A DNA stretch of 64,000 nt from Candidatus Levybacteria bacterium RIFCSPHIGHO2_01_FULL_40_16 (GTDB lineage: Bacteria; Patescibacteriota; Microgenomatia; Levybacterales; UBA12049): positions 1,594 through 65,593 of the forward strand of contig MFNS01000007.1 of assembly GCA_001783805.1 (NCBI GenBank). Reading direction: 5' to 3'. The translations under genes were made by a program, and so were the position numbers. How positions within the stretch are numbered: the stretch's first letter is position 1; every line of letters begins with the position of its first letter. Under the pieces are notes generated by a model. It ran no database searches. It was not told where the DNA came from and saw nothing but the letters and a program-made list of their open reading frames with translations. This document shows, piece after piece, positions 11,265-42,107 of the stretch.

Positions 11265-12563
11265 ATGAATGACAAAAAAACCTTCAAGGAACAGATTGAT
11301 CAGCAAGACGCTCTTAGCGCTATCCGGAAAAAACTTGTCGGCAAGGCTCTTAACTATAAAGAAATTTATAGCATAATGGACCAGATCGCCAAAGAAAGAT
11401 TAGGTCAGGTCGTGACGACATATTTTGCGGCGTCCGGTTACGCGCAGGGATTCACAGATCAAGAACTTTATTTCCTCACCAAGGCAATGGTTGAAACAGG
11501 AGAAAAATTGCATTTTAAAGGAATCGTTGCCGATAAACATTCAATCGGAGGAGTTCCCGGAAATCGCACAACACTTATTATCGTCCCTATCATTGCCGCA
11601 GCCGGATTTTTAATTCCCAAAAGTTCTTCCCGGGCAATAACCACCAGCGGTACTGCAGATGATATGGAAATTCTGGCTCCGGTTATCCTGTCAAAAGAAA
11701 GAATCCTGAAAATAGTTAAGAAAATAAAAGCTTGTATTGTTTGGGGAGGAAATTTCAACATCGCTCCTGCAGATGATGTAATTATAAATGTCGAGAAAGA
11801 ATTAATGTTTGAAAGTTTTGATAAAATTATTATTTCTATAATGGCAAAAAAAGTCGCTTTTGGAGCAACACACGTCGTGATAGATTTGCCTTATGGACAC
11901 AGCCTTAAAGTTACGCACCTTAAAGATGCAAAAATTCTTAAGAGTAAATTTGAAAATATAGCAGAAAAGTTCAAGATCAAAATACGGGTGCTAATTCACA
12001 GAACAGATCAGCCTGTCGGACGGGGAATCGGTCCCACTCTTGAAACAAGAGACGCTTTAAGAGTTTTGGAACAGACATTCGACAAGCCCTACGACTTGGA
12101 AGTCAGAAGCATAACCTTAGCAGGAAGTCTTTTGGAGCTCTGTTTAAAAGATTCTCCAAGGCAATTACAGGAATACGTCAAGAATACTTATGGAAATTGC
12201 ACCGGTTGGGCAACAAAGATTTTGCAAGACGGTCTTGCTTTGAAAAAAATGAAAGAAATTATTTTCGAGCAAGGAGGCAATCCCGATACTGAAAGTTCAA
12301 AATTAATTCCGGGTAAATTTATTTACAAAGTGAAAGCAAAGACTGCTTGTGTAATTAAAAATATAGACAGCAAAAATCTAACGCTTTTAATAAAAGCTTT
12401 AGGTGCGCCTCTGCAGAAAAAATCCGGTATTTACCTGGATCACAAAGAAGGAGAAAGAGCAGAAAAAGGTGATGCCATTTGTACACTTTACAGCGAAAAC
12501 GTGTATAATCTTAAACAAGGAAAAAAGACGCTCAAACAATATCCGGTATTTGATTTTAAATGA
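11265..12563 (+). CDS. thymidine phosphorylase / AMP phosphorylase family protein
   Basis: DKHSIGGVPGN (DKHSTGGVGD phosphate-binding motif) and TTSGTADDMEILAP, as in the pyrimidine-nucleoside phosphorylase family. Confidence 0.75.
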   Translation: MNDKKTFKEQIDQQDALSAIRKKLVGKALNYKEIYSIMDQIAKERLGQVVTTYFAASGYAQGFTDQELYFLTKAMVETGEKLHFKGIVADKHSIGGVPGNRTTLIIVPIIAAAGFLIPKSSSRAITTSGTADDMEILAPVILSKERILKIVKKIKACIVWGGNFNIAPADDVIINVEKELMFESFDKIIISIMAKKVAFGATHVVIDLPYGHSLKVTHLKDAKILKSKFENIAEKFKIKIRVLIHRTDQPVGRGIGPTLETRDALRVLEQTFDKPYDLEVRSITLAGSLLELCLKDSPRQLQEYVKNTYGNCTGWATKILQDGLALKKMKEIIFEQGGNPDTESSKLIPGKFIYKVKAKTACVIKNIDSKNLTLLIKALGAPLQKKSGIYLDHKEGERAEKGDAICTLYSENVYNLKQGKKTLKQYPVFDFK

Positions 12564-13516
12564 AGAAATTAATTATTATTGTCTTAGTTCTCGCAACCGT
12601 TTCCCTCGGAGGCTTGTTGTGGTGGATAAACGGAACGTCTCCTGTAAATCCAGCTAACAAGGAGTCTGCTATATTTGTTATTCAAAAAGGATCCGGTTTG
12701 AAGGAAATAGCTCTGAGGCTTGAAGCCGCGGGGCTTATTAGAGATCGTATAATTTTCTTCCTTTACGCAAGATTTGGGAGATTCGAAGGGAAAATTCAAG
12801 CCGGAGATTTCCGCCTAAATCCGTCTATGAGCGTTGAAGAAATTGCCCAAAATTTAACGCATGGAACTTTAGATGTTTGGATAACAATTCCTGAAGGAGA
12901 AAGGGGAACAGAAATCGCAGATACTCTCAAAGAAAAAATACCTACATTTGATCCTTCTTGGACGATTATCCTGACCCAAAATGAAGGCTTTCTTTTTCCG
13001 GATACTTACCTTATTCCCAAAGACGCAAGTATAAATAGTATCATTATACAAATGAAAAATAATTTTGAACAAAAATACCAATCCCTAGATACTTCCAAAA
13101 CCAAACTCAGCAAGAGTGAGATAGTCACATTGGCATCCCTGGTGGAGAGAGAGGCAAAGTTTGCAGAAGATAGGCCGTTGGTCGCAAGCGTGCTCTTGAA
13201 CAGATTTCAAATTGGAATGAAGCTGGACATTGATGCCACAGTCCAATATGCTCTTGGGTACTCAACGGAGGAAAAAACCTGGTGGAGGAAAAATTTAACT
13301 TTTGAAGATTTGAAAATTACCTCTCCTTACAACACTTACAGAAATGCGGGTCTTCCTCCAACTCCAATTGCCAACCCGGGAATTGAGGCCTTGCGTGCGG
13401 TAGTCAATCCAGCGGATACTAATTTTCTGTATTATATTTCCGACAAAACCGGGCATTTGCATTTTGCCAAAACACTCAACGAACAAAGCGCAAATATCAA
13501 AAAATTCGGCCTCTAG
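12560..13516 (+). CDS. mltG: endolytic murein transglycosylase MltG (YceG family)
   Basis: N-terminal TM segment, YceG-like block, conserved GLPPTPIANPG and YYISDKTGHLHFA near the C-terminus. Confidence 0.8.
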   Translation: MKKLIIIVLVLATVSLGGLLWWINGTSPVNPANKESAIFVIQKGSGLKEIALRLEAAGLIRDRIIFFLYARFGRFEGKIQAGDFRLNPSMSVEEIAQNLTHGTLDVWITIPEGERGTEIADTLKEKIPTFDPSWTIILTQNEGFLFPDTYLIPKDASINSIIIQMKNNFEQKYQSLDTSKTKLSKSEIVTLASLVEREAKFAEDRPLVASVLLNRFQIGMKLDIDATVQYALGYSTEEKTWWRKNLTFEDLKITSPYNTYRNAGLPPTPIANPGIEALRAVVNPADTNFLYYISDKTGHLHFAKTLNEQSANIKKFGL

Positions 13517-14909: not shown

Positions 14910-17078
14910 TTACTGTTGGTGCAGAGCATTGATGATTTCATCAGCATTTTTCATCAATACATCTCTCGGCTTTGACCCCTCTGCGTGGCTCACAACTCCT
15001 GCAGCTTCCAGCTGGTCCAAAATTCTGGCCGCTCTTGAATATCCGATCGAAAGCCGTCTTTGCAAAAGCGATGCCGAAGCCCGGTCATACTGGCAAACAC
15101 TTCTGATTGCCTCTTCAAAAAGCGCATCTTTCCCATCGCTCCCGATAGATGCACCCCCCTTCTTAAGAACAAGAGGGTTAGAAAAAACTTCTTCCGTATA
15201 TTCAACCGGCGGATTTTTAGCTTTAAGGAACTCGACTAGTTTTCTTACTTCCTTGTCCGAAACAAATGCTCCCTGAATACGGGTGGGTTTAGCTTGGTCA
15301 GGCGGAATGTACAACATGTCTCCCCGCCCAAGCAGTTTTTCCGCTCCGGGGGTATCGAGAATTACCCGGGAATCAATCATGGAAGAAACATTGAAAGCAA
15401 TCCGGCAGGGAATATTTGCTTTAATTAATCCGGTTATAACGTCAACCGATGGTCTTTGTGTGGATACTACCAGATGAATTCCGGTTGCTCTGGCCATTTG
15501 AGCAAGACGGGCAACTGCATCTTCAACATCCACAGGCGCAAAAGCCATCAGATCGGCCAGCTCATCGATTAGAATTATAATGTAGGGAAGAGCTTGAAAA
15601 CCGGCTAGTTCATTGCAGGCATCGATATTTCTGACTCCCCTTTCCGCGAAAGTCTTGTATCTTCTGTCCATTTCATCCATTGCCCACCTCAAAGATTTCA
15701 AAATTTTTTCAACTTCCACAATTACCGGAGTCATCAAATGCGGTATGCCGTTATAACCGGTCAATTCTACTCTTTTCGGATCAATGAGAATTAGCCTGAC
15801 CTCTGCCGGAGAAGCTCTAAAAAGAAGGGAAGAAATAAAAGAATTAATGAGGACCGATTTTCCCGAACCGGTTGTTCCGGCAATTAAAACATGCGGCATC
15901 TTCGCAATATTGGCAACCACCGGATTACCCGAAACGTCCAGTCCTAATGAAACAGTCAGTTTGGATTTGCTTTTGTTCATCACCGAAGATTCAAGCATGG
16001 TTTTCAAAGTTACAATTTCCAAACTTCGATTGGGAATTTCTATTCCGACCAGATTTCTGCCCGGAATCGGCGCTTCAATTCTGATTTGACCGGTTGGAGC
16101 CTCGGTTCTTAAAGCCAAGTCATTGGCCAAGGCGGTAATTTTGGATAATTTTGTGCCTAAGCCCACCTCCAAAGCATATTGGGTCACTGCCGGGCCTAGA
16201 TTTACCTCAACCACCTTTGCCGTAATTGAAAAACTCTGCAAAGTCTCTTCTATTTTTGCCGCAATATCTTTGATGTTTCCCCGGTCAGCCTTTTGTGAGG
16301 TTGTCTCGGATAATAGGGAGAAAGGGGGATATTCCCAAAGGCCGGCTTTGGTCAGAGGGTTGCTGACTAGCTGATCCCCGAGAAGTGAAAATTCTTTTTT
16401 AATTGAAGATGCATTAATAATTGGAGCAGCGGTTGATAAATTTGGCAGCATCTTTGATCCGCCTTTGATCCGCATCGGATTTTCTTTAAATCCCGATTGG
16501 CGCTTGTTCTTAAAAAACCCGATGAGCCCGCTTGGAAAAAGCCGATGCAGATTTCGGAAGATGCGTTGTATAAAGGCAAAAACCTGATCCACAGAGGTGT
16601 TGAAAAAGACAATCAAACCGACCAAAACCCCTACGAAATAAATTAGATTTGCGCCAATCTCCGTCAGGGGATTCGCAATCATCCGAAAAAGTTCTCTTCC
16701 GGCTATTCCGCTACCTGTCAAAGCGGAAAGAGATATGAAGAAAAGTAAATACCCCAAGGAAACATTGAGTCCGGATAAAAATAATCTTAATTTTAAGAAC
16801 AAAAATCCAAAAAATATTAAAACGAAAGGAAAAAGGATAGCTATGCTGCCGAAATACTGCTTCAAAAGCTCACTGATGAAAATAAAAGATGTGCTGTTTT
16901 TGGTGAAAAAAGACAGAAGAAGAATTATACCTAGAACTATGAACCCAAACGCAAAAAGAGAATAAACAGTGCCCTTTTTTAGCTTTAATCTTAACTTACT
17001 TTTATGATAATGCTTTCTCCTGGCCATATGAACTATTATATACCCCTTCGTTTTCAAAATAAAAGGGGTAATGCCCAA
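14910..17078 (-). CDS. ftsK: DNA translocase FtsK/SpoIIIE
   Basis: N-terminal polytopic membrane domain; motor domain with Walker A AGTTGSGKSV and the LILIDPKRVEL block; C-terminal gamma domain. Confidence 0.9.
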   Translation of the reverse strand: MGITPFILKTKGYIIVHMARRKHYHKSKLRLKLKKGTVYSLFAFGFIVLGIILLLSFFTKNSTSFIFISELLKQYFGSIAILFPFVLIFFGFLFLKLRLFLSGLNVSLGYLLFFISLSALTGSGIAGRELFRMIANPLTEIGANLIYFVGVLVGLIVFFNTSVDQVFAFIQRIFRNLHRLFPSGLIGFFKNKRQSGFKENPMRIKGGSKMLPNLSTAAPIINASSIKKEFSLLGDQLVSNPLTKAGLWEYPPFSLLSETTSQKADRGNIKDIAAKIEETLQSFSITAKVVEVNLGPAVTQYALEVGLGTKLSKITALANDLALRTEAPTGQIRIEAPIPGRNLVGIEIPNRSLEIVTLKTMLESSVMNKSKSKLTVSLGLDVSGNPVVANIAKMPHVLIAGTTGSGKSVLINSFISSLLFRASPAEVRLILIDPKRVELTGYNGIPHLMTPVIVEVEKILKSLRWAMDEMDRRYKTFAERGVRNIDACNELAGFQALPYIIILIDELADLMAFAPVDVEDAVARLAQMARATGIHLVVSTQRPSVDVITGLIKANIPCRIAFNVSSMIDSRVILDTPGAEKLLGRGDMLYIPPDQAKPTRIQGAFVSDKEVRKLVEFLKAKNPPVEYTEEVFSNPLVLKKGGASIGSDGKDALFEEAIRSVCQYDRASASLLQRRLSIGYSRAARILDQLEAAGVVSHAEGSKPRDVLMKNADEIINALHQQ

Positions 17079-17151
17079 CGAAGCCCCGCTCAGCGGGGCG
17101 GAGTGGCATATACCAAAAACCCAGACTACGAGTTAAACTTTAATCGTATCT

Positions 17152-17170
17152 GGGGGGGGCGCAGATCCCC
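17152..17170 (+). repeat. GC-rich boundary motif, copy A (ggggggggcgcagatcccc), directly upstream of TGaTATAAT
   Basis: A G-run/CGCAGATCC/C-run in otherwise AT-rich DNA. 16 nt downstream is TGATATAAT (17184-17192), then 6 nt, then the GTG start at 17199. Confidence 0.7.
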
Positions 17171-17198
17171 ACAAGTTTTCTTGTGATATAATTTATCT

Positions 17199-17627
17199 GT
17201 GGATAAATTCATTGGGATATTAATCGTATCAACCTCAACTATTCTCTATGCGTTTCTCTATCCATTATTGAAAAAAGCTAATCAGCAGTTACCGCCTTTT
17301 ACTACAATGGCCATCTCTATGTTTATACTTTTCCTTCTGGCAGCTTTCTCCAGTATCTTCTTGGAGAATGGATTACAAATTAAAACTAATATTATCAAGA
17401 ATAATCTTCAGATTTTACTTACAGTAGGGGCGATAAATTTTATTGCCTTTTGGCTAGCAATACTTGGTTTCAAGTATATGGCTGTTTGGCAACAGGATAT
17501 GTTTGCGCTGATTACTCCAGTAGTTGCGGGTATATTTGCCTATTTTCTTTTGGGAGAAAAAATGAATCCTAATTTATTTACTGGTTTGATTATCATGGGA
17601 GCAGGTCTCTACATCGCTCTAAGATAA
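17199..17627 (+). CDS. EamA/DMT-family half-transporter (4 TM), GTG start, leaderless
   Basis: 142-aa polytopic ORF with EamA-like hydrophobic repeats; TATAAT lies 6 nt upstream of the start. Confidence 0.55.
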   Translation: MDKFIGILIVSTSTILYAFLYPLLKKANQQLPPFTTMAISMFILFLLAAFSSIFLENGLQIKTNIIKNNLQILLTVGAINFIAFWLAILGFKYMAVWQQDMFALITPVVAGIFAYFLLGEKMNPNLFTGLIIMGAGLYIALR

Positions 17628-17653
17628 TAGCTCCTCAGGAAACGAGTAGACAT

Positions 17654-17671
17654 GGGGGGGCGCAAATCCCC
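17654..17671 (+). repeat. GC-rich boundary motif, copy B (gggggggcgcaaatcccc)
   Basis: Same motif as A; followed by TGATATAAT (17681-17689) and the ATG at 17696. Confidence 0.7.
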
Positions 17672-17695
17672 ACAGACTTTTGATATAATTACCTT

Positions 17696-18238
17696 ATGGC
17701 TAGTGAAATCCATCCAAATAAAGAGTTTAATAAGAACCCTATTGAAATTGCATCTTCTGACGGAGAAATTGTTCTTAGGCAATTTACGCTCCGGGATTCG
17801 GAAGAAATTTTTTCCTTAATCGATAGAAACCGAGAACATTTGTCTCAATTTGGAGATGATACAGCAGATAAATATCCAACCCTACAGTCAGTACGGAAAA
17901 GTATAGAACATCCTAAGAATCCGGAAAGATTACGATTTGCAATCCGGAACAAACAAGGTCAATTTGTAGGAAGCATAAATCTGACACCATATGAGACAGA
18001 TTCAACGCAAGGAGAAATTGGATATTATTTGGGCGCTGAATTTCAAGGAAAAAGATATATGGGAAAAGCAGTTGAGATAATAACAAATTATGGATTTGAT
18101 TTTCTAAATTATAAAACTATTTATGGGGACATTGTCGAAGGAAATACTGCTTCCGTAAACGTTCTTCTTAAAGCCGGCTATCAGGAGACCGGAAAGCACG
18201 GTGAGAAAATCCGCTACTCAAAACAAAGAGGAATGTGA
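17696..18238 (+). CDS. GNAT family N-acetyltransferase (RimJ/RimL-like)
   Basis: IGYYLGAEFQGKRYMGKAVEIITNYGF acetyl-CoA binding block. Confidence 0.75.
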   Translation: MASEIHPNKEFNKNPIEIASSDGEIVLRQFTLRDSEEIFSLIDRNREHLSQFGDDTADKYPTLQSVRKSIEHPKNPERLRFAIRNKQGQFVGSINLTPYETDSTQGEIGYYLGAEFQGKRYMGKAVEIITNYGFDFLNYKTIYGDIVEGNTASVNVLLKAGYQETGKHGEKIRYSKQRGM

Positions 18239-18244
18239 ATCGGA

Positions 18245-18470
18245 GTGAGCGTTGAAACAAGCGCGTTAAAAAATTATTGAATGAGTTGTCAGGGGAATTC
18301 CTCAGCGAGCGAAAGCGAGATTGAGGAAGGGGTGAAATTACCCGACTAACGAATGAAACAATTTTAGCGCGACTTTCACAGCTCAAGAGTTTTTGGTACC
18401 TTTGTCGGCACAAAAGTACATAAAAAAATAAAAATGAGATTCTGAAACTAGTTCAGAATGACAATTTGGA
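18245..18470 (+). ncRNA. structured intergenic repeat / candidate ncRNA, copy 1 (~225 nt)
   Basis: Shares >85% identity with 41862-42085 and a diverged copy at 33510-33695. Helices (cgcg+aaaatt / aatttt+cgcg closing stem; cctca/tgagg; gtac(c)tttg-tcgg-caaaagtac; attctgaa-actag-ttcagaat) show compensatory changes between copies. Confidence 0.55.
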
Positions 18471-18474
18471 AAAA

Positions 18475-18498
18475 GGGGGGTGGCGCCGCCGATCCCCC
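18475..18498 (+). repeat. GC-rich boundary motif, copy C (ggggggtggcgccgccgatccccc)
   Basis: Fused to the 3' end of ncRNA-like copy 1; followed by TATAAT (18542-18547) and the ATG at 18554. Confidence 0.7.
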
Positions 18499-18553
18499 AA
18501 CAAGGCAACCTGATATATTTTGATATACTCCTCCTTTTTGCTATAATTCCACA

Positions 18554-19597
18554 ATGATGAATCCCGAAAACAGAAGTCGCCTTAATCAAATTCCAGCAAG
18601 CGAATCGCTTAGGAGTTGCGAACGACTTAAACCCGGTTATAAATTACTTTTGGCAGGACCAGGATTTCTGGGAGGGTTTGCATTTAAGGAAGTGGGAAGA
18701 ATAAATGAAATTCTTAAGTCAGTAGGAGATTTCGATGAAGCACTAGCGAGAACTTTATTGTATGAATATTTTTCAATTCACAGTCTTTTTTCACGAATGG
18801 TAGGTAAAGAAAATATAGTAGTGATAAAGACTTCAACGATAGAAGTAAAATCTTCTACCAACAACATGATCGCTGCCTTAAAACGAGTGCAATTCCCCGA
18901 TAATTCTGAATTTAAACAAATAGACGCGGATTTCTTAAGTCAAGGCTATCTCAATTGGCCAAGAGACGCATATACACTATTGGACGATAAATTAATGGTG
19001 GATAGTACTGCTTTAAAAATTAATGGTGACAATATTATTAAATCTAGTTTGGGTGAAGGAGGACAAGTTCTTGTTAGGAAAAAAGCTATTCTCGTTACTC
19101 CAGGTATCTGGAAATATAATAAGACTGAAATTAATAGTTTGCAAGGGCAGGGTTACCGAGTTGGATATTTGCCATTTGTAGATGAAACAAAGCAGAAATA
19201 CGATTTTATGGAAACACATATTGACGGCCATTCGACGCTAATAGAGGACCGTGAGGGAAAATTAAATTTAATCGTTGCAGATTCTTACTCCAGGCAAGGA
19301 AATAATACGAGAAAATTTATTAGAAGAGCTGCAGAAACAATTGGGGCTGAAATGATTGAGGTTGATGATAGAAATCTACCGCCCTTAGCTTTTAATGTAC
19401 TTCAATTCGAAGATAATTCGATAGCCATGACAAACTCTAAAGCCAAAGATCTTGAGTTAACCATATATGACTTAGTTGGCAATGACAAAGTCTTCACTAC
19501 GGAGGTTCCATTAATTAATGTACCAAAACTTACTTTAGGAGGAATCCGTTGCCTAACTAATACAATTCCGAATTGGGTTTTGAATAAATATAATTAA
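18554..19597 (+). CDS. hypothetical protein with a guanidino-modifying-enzyme (agmatine/arginine deiminase / amidinotransferase) -like C-terminal Cys motif
   Basis: C-terminal GGIRCLTNTIP resembles the catalytic-cysteine motif GG(I/V)HC(I/L)T of the GME superfamily. The rest is unassigned. Confidence 0.45.
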   Translation: MMNPENRSRLNQIPASESLRSCERLKPGYKLLLAGPGFLGGFAFKEVGRINEILKSVGDFDEALARTLLYEYFSIHSLFSRMVGKENIVVIKTSTIEVKSSTNNMIAALKRVQFPDNSEFKQIDADFLSQGYLNWPRDAYTLLDDKLMVDSTALKINGDNIIKSSLGEGGQVLVRKKAILVTPGIWKYNKTEINSLQGQGYRVGYLPFVDETKQKYDFMETHIDGHSTLIEDREGKLNLIVADSYSRQGNNTRKFIRRAAETIGAEMIEVDDRNLPPLAFNVLQFEDNSIAMTNSKAKDLELTIYDLVGNDKVFTTEVPLINVPKLTLGGIRCLTNTIPNWVLNKYN

Positions 19598-19605
19598 TTT
19601 AGGCT

Positions 19606-19627
19606 GGATGGGGCGCCGCCGCAGACC
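19606..19627 (+). repeat. GC-rich boundary motif, copy D (ggatggggcgccgccgcagacc), between convergent gene ends
   Basis: Same G-run/CGCCGCC/GCAGA(T)CC composition. Confidence 0.6.
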
Positions 19628-19646
19628 AGAATTTTACAGGGCTTAA

Positions 19647-19928
19647 TCAATATCTTCTGTATTTATCGTGTTTTCCGATATCCAGGAATAAAGCTGTGCC
19701 CTTGTCTATCCAGGAAAAGAAAATTCGGTTGCCCCTATTAATTCTAATTGTCCAAATACTGTTGCCTTTAAGTTTTTCTAAATTTAAACTTGGATGATTG
19801 GGATTTTTAACAAATAGGGTTATCGCTTTAACTGTTTTAGTAAAAAGTTCAAAATTATTGTTTAAGAATTTCTTTCGGGAAGTTAAATACCTTGAAGAAT
19901 ATGTGATCTTTATGCATGCATTAAGCAT
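19647..19928 (-). CDS. type II toxin, RelE/ParE superfamily (YoeB-like)
   Basis: 93 aa; LKGNSIWTIRINRGNRIFFSWIDKGTALFLDIGKHDKY matches the RelE/YoeB C-terminal pattern. It overlaps the upstream Phd/YefM antitoxin by 8 bp. Confidence 0.75.
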   Translation of the reverse strand: MLNACIKITYSSRYLTSRKKFLNNNFELFTKTVKAITLFVKNPNHPSLNLEKLKGNSIWTIRINRGNRIFFSWIDKGTALFLDIGKHDKYRRY

Positions 19929-20190
19929 TTGCTTCTTTTCTCATTTCCTCCAAATCAGCTTCAAGTTCTTCCTTTGTAGAGATTGTTTTTGTCTTTCCGG
20001 CTTCATACTCTCTCAAAGCTTCATTAAGCACTGCATCTAATTGGATTTTTTCTAAAAGATCAAGACTAATAATAGCCCCTAGCGGTTTATTGTTAGACAT
20101 AACAATAATTGGCTCTTTGGATTTATTTGCATCTTCCAAAACCTTCTTGTACCCTCTTTGGATCTGTCTTGCTGATACCGTATTAAACAT
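19921..20190 (-). CDS. type II antitoxin, Phd/YefM family
   Basis: MFNTVSARQIQRGYKKVLEDANKSKEPIIVMSNNKPLGAIISLDLLEKI is the YefM N-terminal fold signature. The ORF-track start at 20253 is a TTG; the likely start is the ATG at 20188-20190, which is 6 nt after TATAAT. Confidence 0.75.
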   Translation of the reverse strand: MFNTVSARQIQRGYKKVLEDANKSKEPIIVMSNNKPLGAIISLDLLEKIQLDAVLNEALREYEAGKTKTISTKEELEADLEEMRKEANA

Positions 20191-20196
20191 GCAATC

Positions 20197-20237
20197 ATTA
20201 TACGCCTTTAAAATGTGTATGTCAATATGACATACAT
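20197..20237 (-). promoter_or_regulatory. yefM-yoeB promoter (TTGACA-17-TATAAT-6-ATG) with an overlapping 9-bp inverted-repeat operator
   Basis: Minus strand: tgTATGTCAtatTGACATACAcattttaaaggcgTATAATgattgcATG. The IR TGTATGTCA/TGACATACA overlaps the -35. Confidence 0.65.
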
Positions 20238-20244
20238 TAATTCT

Positions 20245-20285
20245 GCCCTTCAATCACGACCGGTAAAAAAGGGGGGGCGCAGATC
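20245..20285 (+). repeat. GC-rich boundary motif, copy E, extended form (cttcaatcacgaccggtaaaa + gggggggcgcagatc)
   Basis: The 5' extension is shared almost exactly with copy G at 20921-20964. It lies between divergent promoters. Confidence 0.7.
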
Positions 20286-20330
20286 AGATTTACTGACTTC
20301 GATAGAAACAATCTATATAATCCACCCATT

Positions 20331-20567
20331 ATGCCAACGAAAGAACGGCCGGCACAATGCCTACTCGGTAACGGAGAGTGCCCTAAATCGTGCGAAAATT
20401 ACGCAATGTCTAGATTGATAACTAATAAGTTGGGCGATAATTTTGACCCTTTCCTATCGAGGCTTCGGGTAATATTTGGGGATGGTTTTAGTAGAGATAT
20501 AAGGGTTGGCGACGTAGCAAATGCTTTAAAAAAGTGCATTAGCGAAAAGAAACCATCTCTATTATGA
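20331..20567 (+). CDS. small hypothetical protein (78 aa), Cys-rich N-terminus
   Basis: ORF preceded by TATATAAT (20315-20322) 9 nt upstream. Confidence 0.4.
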   Translation: MPTKERPAQCLLGNGECPKSCENYAMSRLITNKLGDNFDPFLSRLRVIFGDGFSRDIRVGDVANALKKCISEKKPSLL

Positions 20568-20596
20568 CCGGCAGAACGTGGGGCGCCGCCGATCCC
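20566..20596 (+). repeat. GC-rich boundary motif, copy F (gaccggcagaacgtggggcgccgccgatccc)
   Basis: Same family; followed by TAGTATAAT (20632-20640) and the ATG at 20643/20647. Confidence 0.7.
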
Positions 20597-20646
20597 TTAT
20601 CGGACCAAATAACGCATTCTAGCCGGATTTTTAGTATAATAAATGT

Positions 20647-20901
20647 ATGAAAGTCAAAAAATTTGGCTTTTTAAAACCTCGAATACCCAATCTCTTACTC
20701 ACTTTTATTATTCTGTTTTTACCTTTATTTAGAGAGCAATATAACGGAGGACAATATGTAGCCTGGTACAGGCTAATCGATTTATTGATTGGTTCTTTGA
20801 GGCAGCCCGGAACCCTAGGTTTGTTTTTTCTAACGTTAGTTTTTTCCTTAATAATCTATTTTTTCGTATCGTTAGTAATTTTTAAGATAATTCAGAGGTG
20901 A
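20647..20901 (+). CDS. small hypothetical membrane protein (84 aa, 2 TM)
   Basis: ORF with two hydrophobic helices; leaderless architecture. Confidence 0.4.
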   Translation: MKVKKFGFLKPRIPNLLLTFIILFLPLFREQYNGGQYVAWYRLIDLLIGSLRQPGTLGLFFLTLVFSLIIYFFVSLVIFKIIQR

Positions 20902-20915
20902 CTCAAAACGAAAGA

Positions 20916-22580
20916 CTAAACTTCAATCACGACCGGTAAAACCAGGGGGCGGCGGCGCAGATCCTTAAAGATTCTTCTTTCCGCGACTTCTCCAATTAAT
21001 TTTCTCATATAAATCCAATTTGTCACACGGGCTTTGCGCGGATTTAAAGCTTTATGCATGTCCTGCGACAATTTGGAGCTTAGATGCTTGATGTCGTATA
21101 AAAATCCTCTGACAATAATATCCGGGGCTCCCAAAAGCTGTCCTGTTGCCGAATCTATTTCTGCGAGAACTATAATTATTCCGGCTTCTGATAATTTTTG
21201 TCTGTCCCGGAGAACAAAACTCTCCAACTCTTCTCCGGATATTTCATCCACATAAACATTTTTGGTCGGAATTGTCCTGCCCAATTTTACCTGACCGTCG
21301 ACAAACAAAAGTTCCTGCCCGTCTTCCAACAGGAAAATATCATTTTTATGATACCCCAATTTTTCTGCCAATTTTCTGTAGGCAAACATGTGTCGGTATT
21401 GTCCGCCGATAGGAATTAATTTTTTCGGTCTGACTAATTTTATTAACTGTTCCAGCTCATCCAATGATCCGTGTCCGGAAACATGAAAATCTTTGGACAC
21501 CGGGGAGTAGACAACTCTCACTCCCCTGCGGGTTAACGTATCGACTAATTCGTAAACAGAAGTTTCATTGCCGGGAATCGGATCAGAGGAAAAAACAATC
21601 ACATCTTCTTCCCGTAATTTCACATCCCTGTGTTCGCCATTGGCAATTCTGGTTAACGCGGAATTCTCCTGCCCTTGGCTTCCCGCGACAATTAAAGTTA
21701 ATTTATTATCCGCATGATTTTTCAAATTATCTATCTCCACCTCAATATCTTTTTTCAAATTAAGATATCCCAAATCTCCGGCCACTTCCCTATTCCTAAT
21801 CAGAGACCTACCGACAAAACAAATTCTTCTTCCATTATCAACAGAGGCTTTAATAATTTGATTAAGTCTGGCAATATTGGATGAGTAAGTCGTCACAATA
21901 AATTTACCTTTGCACTCTCTCATTTCGCGGTTGAAATGCTCTAGTAATCCAATGTCTGATTGCGTCCTGCCTGCTCTTTCCGCACCCAGACAATCGGATA
22001 ATAAACACATTGTTCCCTGTGACGCTAATTGCGAAATTTTTGCATAATCGGATTTTTTTCCATCAGACGGAGTGTCATCGAATTTAAAATCACTACCATG
22101 GTAAAAATTCCCAACCGGTGTTTTAATAAAAATATGCGAGGTGTCAGAAACGGAATGGGTAACGGGGATAAAGGAAAATCTAAAACTGCCGATGCTTTTT
22201 TCCGGCTCATTGAATTTAACTGTCTGCACTCTTTTTTGCGCTTTAAAATCTTTTAATTTGGCATTGGCAAAGGCCGCAGTTAAAGGAGTGGCAAAAATTG
22301 GAAAATCAGGCAGTTGGGGCAATAAAAATGGCAAAGCCCCGATATGATCTTCATGTCCATGAGTTAAAAGCATGCCAACAATTCTTTTCTTGTTCTGCTT
22401 TGCAGAATTTAGCAAATAAGAAATATCCGGCAGCAATAAATCAACTCCCAGCATAGTTTCATCGGCAAAACCAAGTCCGCAATCAACGATCAGGATTTGA
22501 TCATTGTACTCATACAGATACATGTTTTTGGTGACATTCCCAATCCCGCCAAGAGGAATAAAAGATAATTGATTATTCAT
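20916..22580 (-). CDS. rnj: ribonuclease J (beta-CASP metallo-beta-lactamase)
   Basis: HGHEDHIGALP (HxHxDH) motif and beta-CASP blocks. The C-terminal tail is read through a repeat copy. Confidence 0.85.
   Translation of the reverse strand: MNNQLSFIPLGGIGNVTKNMYLYEYNDQILIVDCGLGFADETMLGVDLLLPDISYLLNSAKQNKKRIVGMLLTHGHEDHIGALPFLLPQLPDFPIFATPLTAAFANAKLKDFKAQKRVQTVKFNEPEKSIGSFRFSFIPVTHSVSDTSHIFIKTPVGNFYHGSDFKFDDTPSDGKKSDYAKISQLASQGTMCLLSDCLGAERAGRTQSDIGLLEHFNREMRECKGKFIVTTYSSNIARLNQIIKASVDNGRRICFVGRSLIRNREVAGDLGYLNLKKDIEVEIDNLKNHADNKLTLIVAGSQGQENSALTRIANGEHRDVKLREEDVIVFSSDPIPGNETSVYELVDTLTRRGVRVVYSPVSKDFHVSGHGSLDELEQLIKLVRPKKLIPIGGQYRHMFAYRKLAEKLGYHKNDIFLLEDGQELLFVDGQVKLGRTIPTKNVYVDEISGEELESFVLRDRQKLSEAGIIIVLAEIDSATGQLLGAPDIIVRGFLYDIKHLSSKLSQDMHKALNPRKARVTNWIYMRKLIGEVAERRIFKDLRRRPLVLPVVIEV
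20921..20964 (+). repeat. GC-rich boundary motif, copy G (cttcaatcacgaccggtaaaaccagggggcggcggcgcagatcc), embedded in the 3' end of rnj
   Basis: Near-identical to copy E. On the minus strand it encodes the last 15 aa (LRRRPLVLPVVIEV) of the RNase J ORF. Confidence 0.7.
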
Positions 22581-33509: not shown

Positions 33510-33695
33510 CTTGCGAGCATTAAACAAAGCGCGTTAAACATTTTTGAGCAAGTTGTCAGGGGGATTCCTCACCCCGATCGAATCGGGATTGAGGAGGGGG
33601 TGCAAATCACCCGACAAAACGAGCCAAAAAATGTAGCGCGACTTTACCGCTCGCAGAGTTTTGGTACTTTTGCGGACAAAAGTAAGTAAAAAAAC
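33510..33695 (+). ncRNA. structured intergenic repeat / candidate ncRNA, copy 3 (diverged, lacks the 3'-most hairpin)
   Basis: Aligns with copies 1 and 2 with compensatory changes: aaaatt/aatttt -> acattt/aaatgt; cctca-...-tgagg retained; the inner loop is replaced by the self-complementary cccgaTCGAAtcggg; ctttg-tcgg-caaag -> cttttg-cgga-caaaag. Confidence 0.5.
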
Positions 33696-41845: not shown

Positions 41846-41861
41846 CTATTGCCCAATTGTG

Positions 41862-42085
41862 AGCACTGAAACAAGCGCGTTAAAAAATTGCGGAGTGAGT
41901 TGTCAGGGGAATTCCTCAGCGAGCGCAAACGAGATTGAGGAAGGGGTGAAATTACCCGACTAACGAATGAGGCAATTTTAGCGCGACTTTCACGCGAACG
42001 AGTTTTTGGTACTTTTGTCGGCACAAAAGTACAAGAAAAAAATAAAAAATTAGATCCTGAAATAAATTCAGGATGACATGGGAAA
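41862..42085 (+). ncRNA. structured intergenic repeat / candidate ncRNA, copy 2
   Basis: Near-identical to 18245-18470, with a compensatory swap in the last hairpin (atcctgaa-ataaa-ttcaggat vs attctgaa-actag-ttcagaat). It ends 20 nt before TAGAAT-6-ATG of metG. Confidence 0.55.
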
Positions 42086-42107
42086 ATTTCTCTGCTAGAA
42101 TGACCTC

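Follow-up and report, generated by a model that had tools for sequence, protein, structure and literature searches.

Displaced copies of the RNase J gene end appear to bound an array of small accessory genes in a clade of Levybacteria

Genomic islands can integrate at the 3′ ends of genes, including those for tRNAs, tmRNA and proteins, and regenerate the target in doing so, as the tRNA and tmRNA islands in Islander do (PMC4383910). Tandem arrays of such islands are known from the ssrA islands of Dehalococcoides (PMC3146451) and the tycheposons of Prochlorococcus (bioRxiv 10.1101/2020.12.28.424599), and cis-mobilizable elements (CIMEs) accrete at the 3′ end of fda in Streptococcus (the term follows PMC5704250 and PMC6323972). 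Here we describe a repeat-bounded array of small genes in a 64 kb stretch of DNA (the window; 39% G+C) from Candidatus Levybacteria bacterium RIFCSPHIGHO2_01_FULL_40_16, a member of the Microgenomates from the Rifle aquifer, where it occupies the 3.8 kb between ftsK and rnj, the gene for RNase J. Levybacteria are ultra-small groundwater bacteria, and the Candidate Phyla Radiation (CPR, or Patescibacteria) is marked by tiny genomes with few recognised mobile elements; the route by which accessory genes are acquired there is largely unknown. We consider it likely that the array arose through repeated insertion of small single-gene units at the 3′ end of rnj, the earlier ends being displaced as repeats. 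By analogy, the best-supported description would be a miniaturised, integrase-less variant of the 3′-end-targeting integrative elements, in a CPR lineage. The logic of insertion and regeneration is already known; what is unusual here is the scale and the missing enzyme.

In several respects the array resembles 3′-end islands: the target appears to be left intact, a displaced 3′ fragment of it marks the far boundary as a direct repeat, newer inserts would push older ones outward, and partial copies of the target are strewn through a hypervariable region beside a core gene. Unlike in those islands, the target here is the protein gene rnj of a CPR bacterium, the units are single genes of 0.3–1.6 kb, no integrase or replication module is seen in about 35 arrays, and what has been duplicated is a 51-nt piece of coding sequence with synonymous variants.

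An earlier reading of the sequence alone (the original prediction) had noticed seven copies of a GC-rich motif bounding six small units, namely an EamA half-transporter, a GNAT acetyltransferase, an enzyme likened to the guanidine-modifying enzymes (GME; p347 below), a toxin-antitoxin (TA) pair and two short open reading frames (ORFs; p78 and p84). It called for the locus to be compared among relatives, and this was done with 75 species-level genomes, 40 metagenome contigs and nine close relatives fetched by exact protein, all of them metagenome assemblies; the loci compared carry L-numbers (L001, L083, L107 and so on) as labels. We take as the clade those loci whose rnj is at least 74% identical to that of the window (about 74–89%), which gives 35 distinct loci. 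Five independent assemblies of the same species agree at 100.0% identity across 4.2 kb of the array, and this supports its reality. Assembly chimerism is an unlikely source of the displaced ends described below, since these turn up repeatedly in separate assemblies.

The seven motif copies, designated A to G, are present and all lie on the + strand, at 17152, 17654, 18475, 19610, 20271, 20580 and 20945, the positions of D, F and G having been refined. A relaxed 13-nt pattern (at most two mismatches) finds seven matches on both strands of the 64 kb against 1.98 expected from shuffles; six of the seven fall inside the 3.8 kb array, on one strand, where about 0.06 would be expected for the + strand of that stretch. 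Within the 64 kb the motif is essentially confined to the array locus, and other promoters of the window lack it. Its nature can be read from copy G. Taken at first for an intergenic separator, this copy actually lies inside the ORF of rnj (20916..22580, − strand; 554 residues; Pfam domains Lactamase_B, beta-CASP and RNase_J_C), the target gene, whose RNase_J_C domain aligns in Pfam through the final residue. The protein encoded by rnj is identical to one from 'RIFCSPLOWO2_01_FULL_39…'. The 21-nt extension reported for copies E and G is exact in both, and a diverged version of it is found in copy F. On the − strand, copy G with its extension reads AAG GAT CTG CGC CGC CGC CCC CTG GTT TTA CCG GTC GTG ATT GAA GTT TAG, which is KDLRRRPLVLPVVIEV followed by a stop, and all the Levybacteria relatives that were inspected conserve this RNase J C-terminus. 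The motif as originally written, G5-(CGCCGCC)-GCAGATCC, is the reverse complement of the D-L-R-R-R-P codons. This reading frame shows the GC-rich motif to be the 3′ coding end of rnj (the last 16 codons and the stop, 51 nt), and copies A–F are thus displaced, partial and partly decayed duplicates of that end.

The resident end (20916..20966, − strand) contains the core GGATCTGCGCCGCCGCCCC, and the other copies, all read on the − strand, retain different amounts of it. Copy F (20557..20597) is a frameshifted displaced end of a different allele (…CGGCGGCGCCCC…GTTCTGCCGGTCATAATAGAG; nhmmer E 2e-3) that overlaps the last codons of p78. Copy E (20248..20285; E 5e-5 with the resident-end profile, z = 16) has a tail identical to the resident end at 21/21 positions and a core that lacks two of the Arg codons. 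Copy D (19610..19627) is core only (GGTCTGCGGCGGCGCCCC, encoding LRRRP with CGG codons), and copy C (18475..18499) consists of the core with a shortened tail. Copy B (17654..17674) is a core remnant, and copy A (17133..17171), beside ftsK, comprises GGATCTGCGCC, a poly-C run, an internal deletion and then GATTAAAGTTTAA.

Other sources for the repeat were tried and rejected. A tRNA or tmRNA fragment was set aside as neither gene occurs in the window, and no known RNA family matches at the Rfam gathering threshold; FMN appears only when this is relaxed, at the chance level of 15.8 bits against a threshold of 66. An attC-like hairpin is rejected by folding as single-stranded DNA, which gave z-scores of −0.6 to +1.0 against shuffles for four copies on both strands and no hairpin signal. 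A dispersed repeat of the miniature inverted-repeat transposable element (MITE) or repetitive extragenic palindrome (REP) type is likewise rejected, all copies being at one locus and in direct orientation with no inverted partner. The repeat is an att-type direct repeat of 3′-end-inserting elements, not an attC-like site.

The gene order lonAAA-rnj-ftsK-HTH (helix-turn-helix) is kept across Microgenomates, and among these relatives the gap between rnj and ftsK varies from 8 nt to more than 7 kb. Three of the 35 clade loci have no insert, the match to ftsK starting 23–29 nt past the rnj stop, and other members carry one to seven unrelated small genes in the gap. A search by nhmmer with a profile of 32 resident rnj ends picked out displaced ends in 16 of the 35 loci, between one and three in each and with E values as low as 3e-16. 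Many of these have the full 51 nt including the stop; an example is the array of L083, which runs rnj / DsrE / end / GNAT / end / 193 residues / end / 76 residues, SET / ftsK. Outside the clade of the window no duplicated rnj end was seen, and no cargo gene of the window was found among the 75 species-level relatives. The gain, loss and reshuffling of cassettes between rnj and ftsK that the original prediction had proposed to look for are thus observed among relatives.

The insert-free loci also indicate which end is oldest. What comes after the rnj stop in L092, L099 and L109 is CTTGTAGTCT…GTATATAATAGTT…ATG, the promoter and start of ftsK. This stretch also comes after the final displaced end in L001, L089, L091 and L110, and in the window it follows copy A (GATTAAAGTT TAA CTCGTAGTCT…TATAATAGTT…ATG). 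Copy A, standing before the ftsK promoter just as an intact rnj stop does in insert-free genomes, is on this comparison the ancestral rnj end, separated from its gene by all later inserts. The ftsK gene (14910..17027, − strand), with a leaderless promoter whose TATAAT lies at 17035–17040, bounds the hotspot on its far, conserved side.

The displaced ends bear the mark of coding sequence. When eleven ungapped full-length displaced copies were compared with the resident end of their own locus, differences numbered 30, 20 and 91 at codon positions 1, 2 and 3, and in L097 all seven of seven differences are at third positions and silent. The predominance of third-position changes shows that displaced ends once functioned as gene ends. 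One displaced end in L088 shares 95.7% identity with the window's resident end and is farther from L088's own. Ends are exchanged between lineages while selection keeps them coding for the RNase J terminus. The idea that each insertion copies the resident end as a long target-site duplication, which then decays at random, was considered and rejected on account of the synonymous-site differences and the better match to another lineage's end.

Cassettes recur in different company. Homologues of the GNAT gene are 84% identical in L083, L104, L112 and L125 and 64% identical in L107, with different neighbours; a p78 homologue (58% identical) directly follows rnj in L120; and the TA unit, together with the tail and operator, recurs in L107, where it is flanked on either side by other neighbours. 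Another four cargo families are common to other arrays, again in different order and surroundings. At the promoter-side junction of the GNAT gene, the window has …GGTAATTATATCAAAAG…TC in common with L083 and L107 as far as the core (GGATTTGCGCC / GGATTCTGCGCC / GCCGCGCC), and past this core, copy B in the window, there is complete divergence into EamA (window), another cassette (L083) and unrelated DNA (L107). Sequence common to arrays ends at the core GGATCTGCGCC, and the TA unit is core-bounded on both sides in the window as in L107. L107 has the order TA-GGTCTGCG-CCCCCCCC-hairpin/230-nt element and no p347, and the window has TA-GGTCTGCG-GCGGCGCCCC-[p347]-GGGGGATCG-GCGGCGCCACCCCCC-hairpin/230-nt element. 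A single cassette insertion at an internal core would produce this before/after pair, and insertion of p347 there would explain copies D and C, which form its left and right junctions. These comparisons show that cassettes have been reassorted between arrays with breakpoints at the core. Unit size is consistently 0.3–1.6 kb with the promoter 10–40 nt from the junction, and cargo orientation relative to rnj across the clade is mixed (45 reverse, 38 forward). The left boundary of displaced copies lies almost always within about 10 nt of AAGGATCT, with L040 as the exception.

The core is also unusual in its codons. Its three Arg codons (rnj codons −13 to −11; window 20949–20957) are CGC in 33/33, 33/33 and 28/33 distinct clade sequences. 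CGC makes up 13.8% of Arg codons in the core genes of the window, against 47% for AGA, and among the last 80 codons of rnj, the five remaining Arg positions that are well conserved mostly use AGA. Nearby synonymous sites of the rnj end vary freely within the clade, and more distant Levybacteria have mixed Arg codons at the core position. Fixation of CGC despite the preference for AGA and the free variation of neighbouring sites points to a constraint on the core at the nucleotide level.

Repeated insertion at the rnj end can be set out as follows. In the clade ancestor the ftsK promoter would have lain within about 25 nt of the rnj stop. Small units, each consisting of one gene or TA pair with its own extended −10 leaderless promoter, would have inserted repeatedly at a core of about GGATCTGCGCCGCCGCC (codons D-L-R-R-R), located in the last 51 nt of rnj or in an earlier copy of them. 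Each insertion would keep the rnj end intact and displace the previous end as a direct repeat (Campbell-type), giving the order rnj-end / cassette / old end / cassette / ... / oldest end / ftsK. Displaced ends, being freed from selection, would then decay, mainly by slippage in (CGC)n and poly-C runs and by deletions, and those in the window would have shrunk to the GC-rich core. It would be circular cassettes that recombine at the core and, as the weakest step, an unlinked site-specific recombinase that acts on them in trans. A more far-reaching form of this proposal, which we hold tentatively and with more doubt than confidence, is that the clade possesses a dedicated integron-like gene-capture platform of independent origin. 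Its site would lie in the last codons of rnj, with CGC CGC CGC kept against codon preference; a recombinase encoded elsewhere would act in trans on promoter-bearing single-gene circles, each with a spare rnj terminus, and the essential gene would never be broken.

Several observations weigh against insertion by such an apparatus. The array is sedentary at the strain level, its identity in the five assemblies showing no sign of ongoing mobility, and strain-level cassette variation is rejected for the same reason. No integrase had been visible in the window to the original prediction; Pfam annotation also finds none, and no recombinase or integrase gene was found within 10 kb on each side of rnj in nine clade genomes. 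The roughly 80 cargo ORFs of the 35 arrays include no integrase, integrase fragment or phage gene. Among metagenomes of the Joint Genome Institute (JGI), no rnj end was found away from rnj loci, 40/40 matches being rnj ends or displaced ends just downstream, and IMG/VR holds no match that would represent a phage or plasmid attP with an rnj end. Eight clade loci with inserts have no detectable displaced end, and none was detected in more distant Levybacteria with inserts (L003, L004, L026, L028 and others). Either other entry routes into the hotspot must therefore exist, or ends decay beyond recognition. Lastly, the left boundary of the L040 duplication lies about 12 nt further 5′, the tail of copy E equals the resident tail despite the diverged copy F between them, and the L107 TA unit has a different tail. 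This pattern suggests an additional role for gene conversion, or for ordinary homologous recombination between ends.

Homologous recombination is accordingly the main rival, and it probably contributes. As the whole explanation it would dispense with a dedicated recombinase: rnj and the repeated 51-nt ends would exchange sequence, for instance following natural transformation, with resolution at the core as the best-conserved stretch, and the first duplication would be a rare illegitimate event. The lack of a recombinase near the arrays, the L040 boundary and the conversion-like tail of copy E suit this account, as does a type IV pilus gene (PilO) in the window. However, it does not predict the invariant CGC CGC CGC, and many independent displaced ends share the left boundary near AAGGATCT. 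Ends of 51 nt, often 80–90% identical, are moreover a poor RecA substrate, and Campbell-type insertion still requires a circular donor with an rnj end. Taken alone, we judge it unlikely.

Somewhat less probable again is an account by decay, in which a few islands or prophages of the ordinary kind, with integrases, accreted in tandem at the rnj 3′ end and the present units are what is left of them, with no system for moving single genes. Such behaviour is known at the 3′ ends of tRNA, tmRNA and protein genes (PMC4383910; PMC3146451; bioRxiv 10.1101/2020.12.28.424599), and L040 and L126 do hold a 5.4-kb multigene block between two ends. Decay would nonetheless have to account for the lack of any integrase fragment or phage gene in the cargo, for units that are consistently 0.3–1.6 kb with a promoter 10–40 nt from the junction, for the same single-gene units (GNAT, TA) being core-bounded in several arrays, and for the lack of any rnj end in IMG/VR. 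That the motif is instead a binding site or promoter element of a GC-box transcription factor with a small regulon, as the original prediction had offered, is very improbable. Five copies do lie 12–42 nt upstream of a −10 box, but the copies descend from coding sequence (those of relatives are full 51-nt gene ends with stop codons), their distance from the promoter varies, no promoter adjoins copy D, copy G is inside a gene and the other leaderless promoters of the window lack the motif.

Repeated insertion at the rnj end, which we continue to prefer, may be set beside three further kinds of described system. Like integrons, including the integrase-less clusters of attC sites (CALINs), the locus combines compact, unrelated single-gene cassettes and a TA pair with a recurring recombination-site-like repeat and reassortment. 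Unlike in integrons, no intI was found in the window or around rnj in the nine clade genomes, the repeat does not form an imperfect palindrome, the point of insertion falls within the coding end of a housekeeping gene, and the cassettes have their own promoters and mixed orientation, whereas integron cassettes are mostly promoterless and in one orientation. The integron is rejected on these grounds (no intI, no attC fold, own promoters, mixed orientation). Of the likeness first drawn to an integron or other cassette array, the cassette array survives, with its gain, loss and reshuffling and the repeat at the junctions, and the integron does not.

CIMEs are similar in that the units have att-type flanks, sit at the 3′ end of a protein-coding housekeeping gene and lack recombination genes of their own. 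They differ in that they adjoin and depend on a cognate integrase-bearing integrative and conjugative or integrative and mobilizable element (ICE/IME), and no such partner is present in the clade loci examined, which are not complete genomes. The dif modules of Acinetobacter (PMC6449649; PMC13141974) are also small TA or single-gene modules with short recurring sites and no recombinase of their own, shuffled between replicons by what is presumed to be a host recombinase in trans. Their sites are 28-bp XerC/XerD sites in alternating orientation on plasmids, whereas the repeats here are direct, 51 nt long, derived from coding sequence and chromosomal. The rnj repeat lacks dyad symmetry, and cumulative GC skew gives no terminus in the window.

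From rnj outward, the first cassette gene is p84 (20647..20901, + strand), which encodes a hydrophobic protein of 84 residues with no family and has a TATAAT at 20635–20640, 6 nt before the ATG. Next comes p78 (20331..20567, + strand; 78 residues), with TATAAT at 20316–20321. The TA cassette (19647..20245, − strand) comprises an operator/promoter, a PhdYefM antitoxin (19921–20190) and a ParE/RelE-like toxin (19647–19928). It was at first called YoeB/YefM, and the antitoxin bears this out; the toxin gives only a weak, sub-threshold ParE/RelE-like match. The GNAT gene (17696..18238, + strand; E 3e-22; TGATATAAT at 17681–17689) and the single-domain EamA transporter gene (17199..17627, + strand; 142 residues, GTG start; E 6e-14; TGATATAAT at 17184–17192) are as originally named.

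The gene p347 (18554..19597, + strand; TGCTATAAT at 18539–18547) has no match to a sequence family or to a PDB sequence. Its AlphaFold model (pLDDT 85, 19 homologues) gives Foldseek matches at E 1e-7 to DDAH, arginine and agmatine deiminases and amidinotransferases, and His222, Asp224 and Cys333 are invariant among the homologues. The GME-like assignment is upheld by this model, which gives p347 a pentein/GME fold. The family numbers about 30 sequences among 5.8 billion, is apparently restricted to Levybacteria and is covered by no Pfam model. As a marker of hotspots elsewhere p347 was uninformative, the sole homologue with retrievable DNA sitting in a different context, and neither GNAT nor p347 has meaningful relatives on viral contigs.

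The original prediction had also seen TGnTATAAT close to the start codon in five units. A perfect TATAAT lies 6–9 nt before the start codon in six array units, the antitoxin included, with TGn ahead of it in three only. As the same layout is found at ftsK, alaS and about eight other core genes of the window, the leaderless extended −10 promoter is a house style of the genome and not a hallmark of the cassettes.

Between the GNAT gene and copy C lies an element of about 230 nt (18239..18474, + strand) with a hairpin at its end. It recurs in the window at 41859–42086 and 33515–33694, all on the + strand, and in relatives at L107 1271–1448 and 3468–3713, L088 11764–11977 and L101 1005–1226, and in L127, L108 and L094; in several of them it directly adjoins either the rnj stop or a displaced end. 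The element has strongly conserved blocks and a variable hairpin of 27 predicted pairs, four of them with double compensatory changes, and its G-U pairs fit the + strand of the window. It matches no Rfam family and may be an undescribed structured RNA or a Levybacteria MITE.

Other features were seen at or near the hotspot. A 66-nt insertion (about 17041–17106, in the − strand sense) sits between the ancestral rnj end and the −10 box of ftsK, with a GGTATAT duplication on its flanks and the hairpin CCCCGCTGAGCGGGG inside; it is single-copy in the window and missing at the same position in L001, L089, L091, L110, L092 and L099. In L001, the closest species-level relative, a second direct repeat (CCCGCGGGTCGGAGTCCT / CCCTGCGGGTCGGAATCCT, at 11660–11690 and 12699–12722) flanks the single insert just inside both rnj ends. 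A second TA pair (MazE-like / PemK) lies at about 24.6–25.2 kb of the window (L077 7434–8002), between pnp and a Lon-like AAA gene and about 4 kb from the array; its gene calls vary between assemblies. The longest array (L097 5360–12608, more than 7 kb) resembles a small defence island at the rnj hotspot. By eye, from sequence motifs and not by family search, it holds an AbiEii-like gene, a restriction enzyme-like ORF with an N4/N6 DNA methylase, a LexA-like repressor, a TIR-like gene and two EamA half-transporters.

A practical lesson is that what looks like a GC-rich "motif" in AT-rich DNA between genes can be a fossil left by the end of the gene next door. If a trans-acting recombinase is truly at work, this would be an independently arisen integron-like capture system with its site embedded in coding sequence, relevant to mobile-element biology and to the hunt for new site-specific recombinases. 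For the Levybacteria themselves, the hotspot at the rnj end is a reproducible route by which single accessory genes, among them defence genes, TA pairs, transporter halves and small enzymes, are gained, lost and rearranged within a genus-level clade while the essential gene is left undisturbed.

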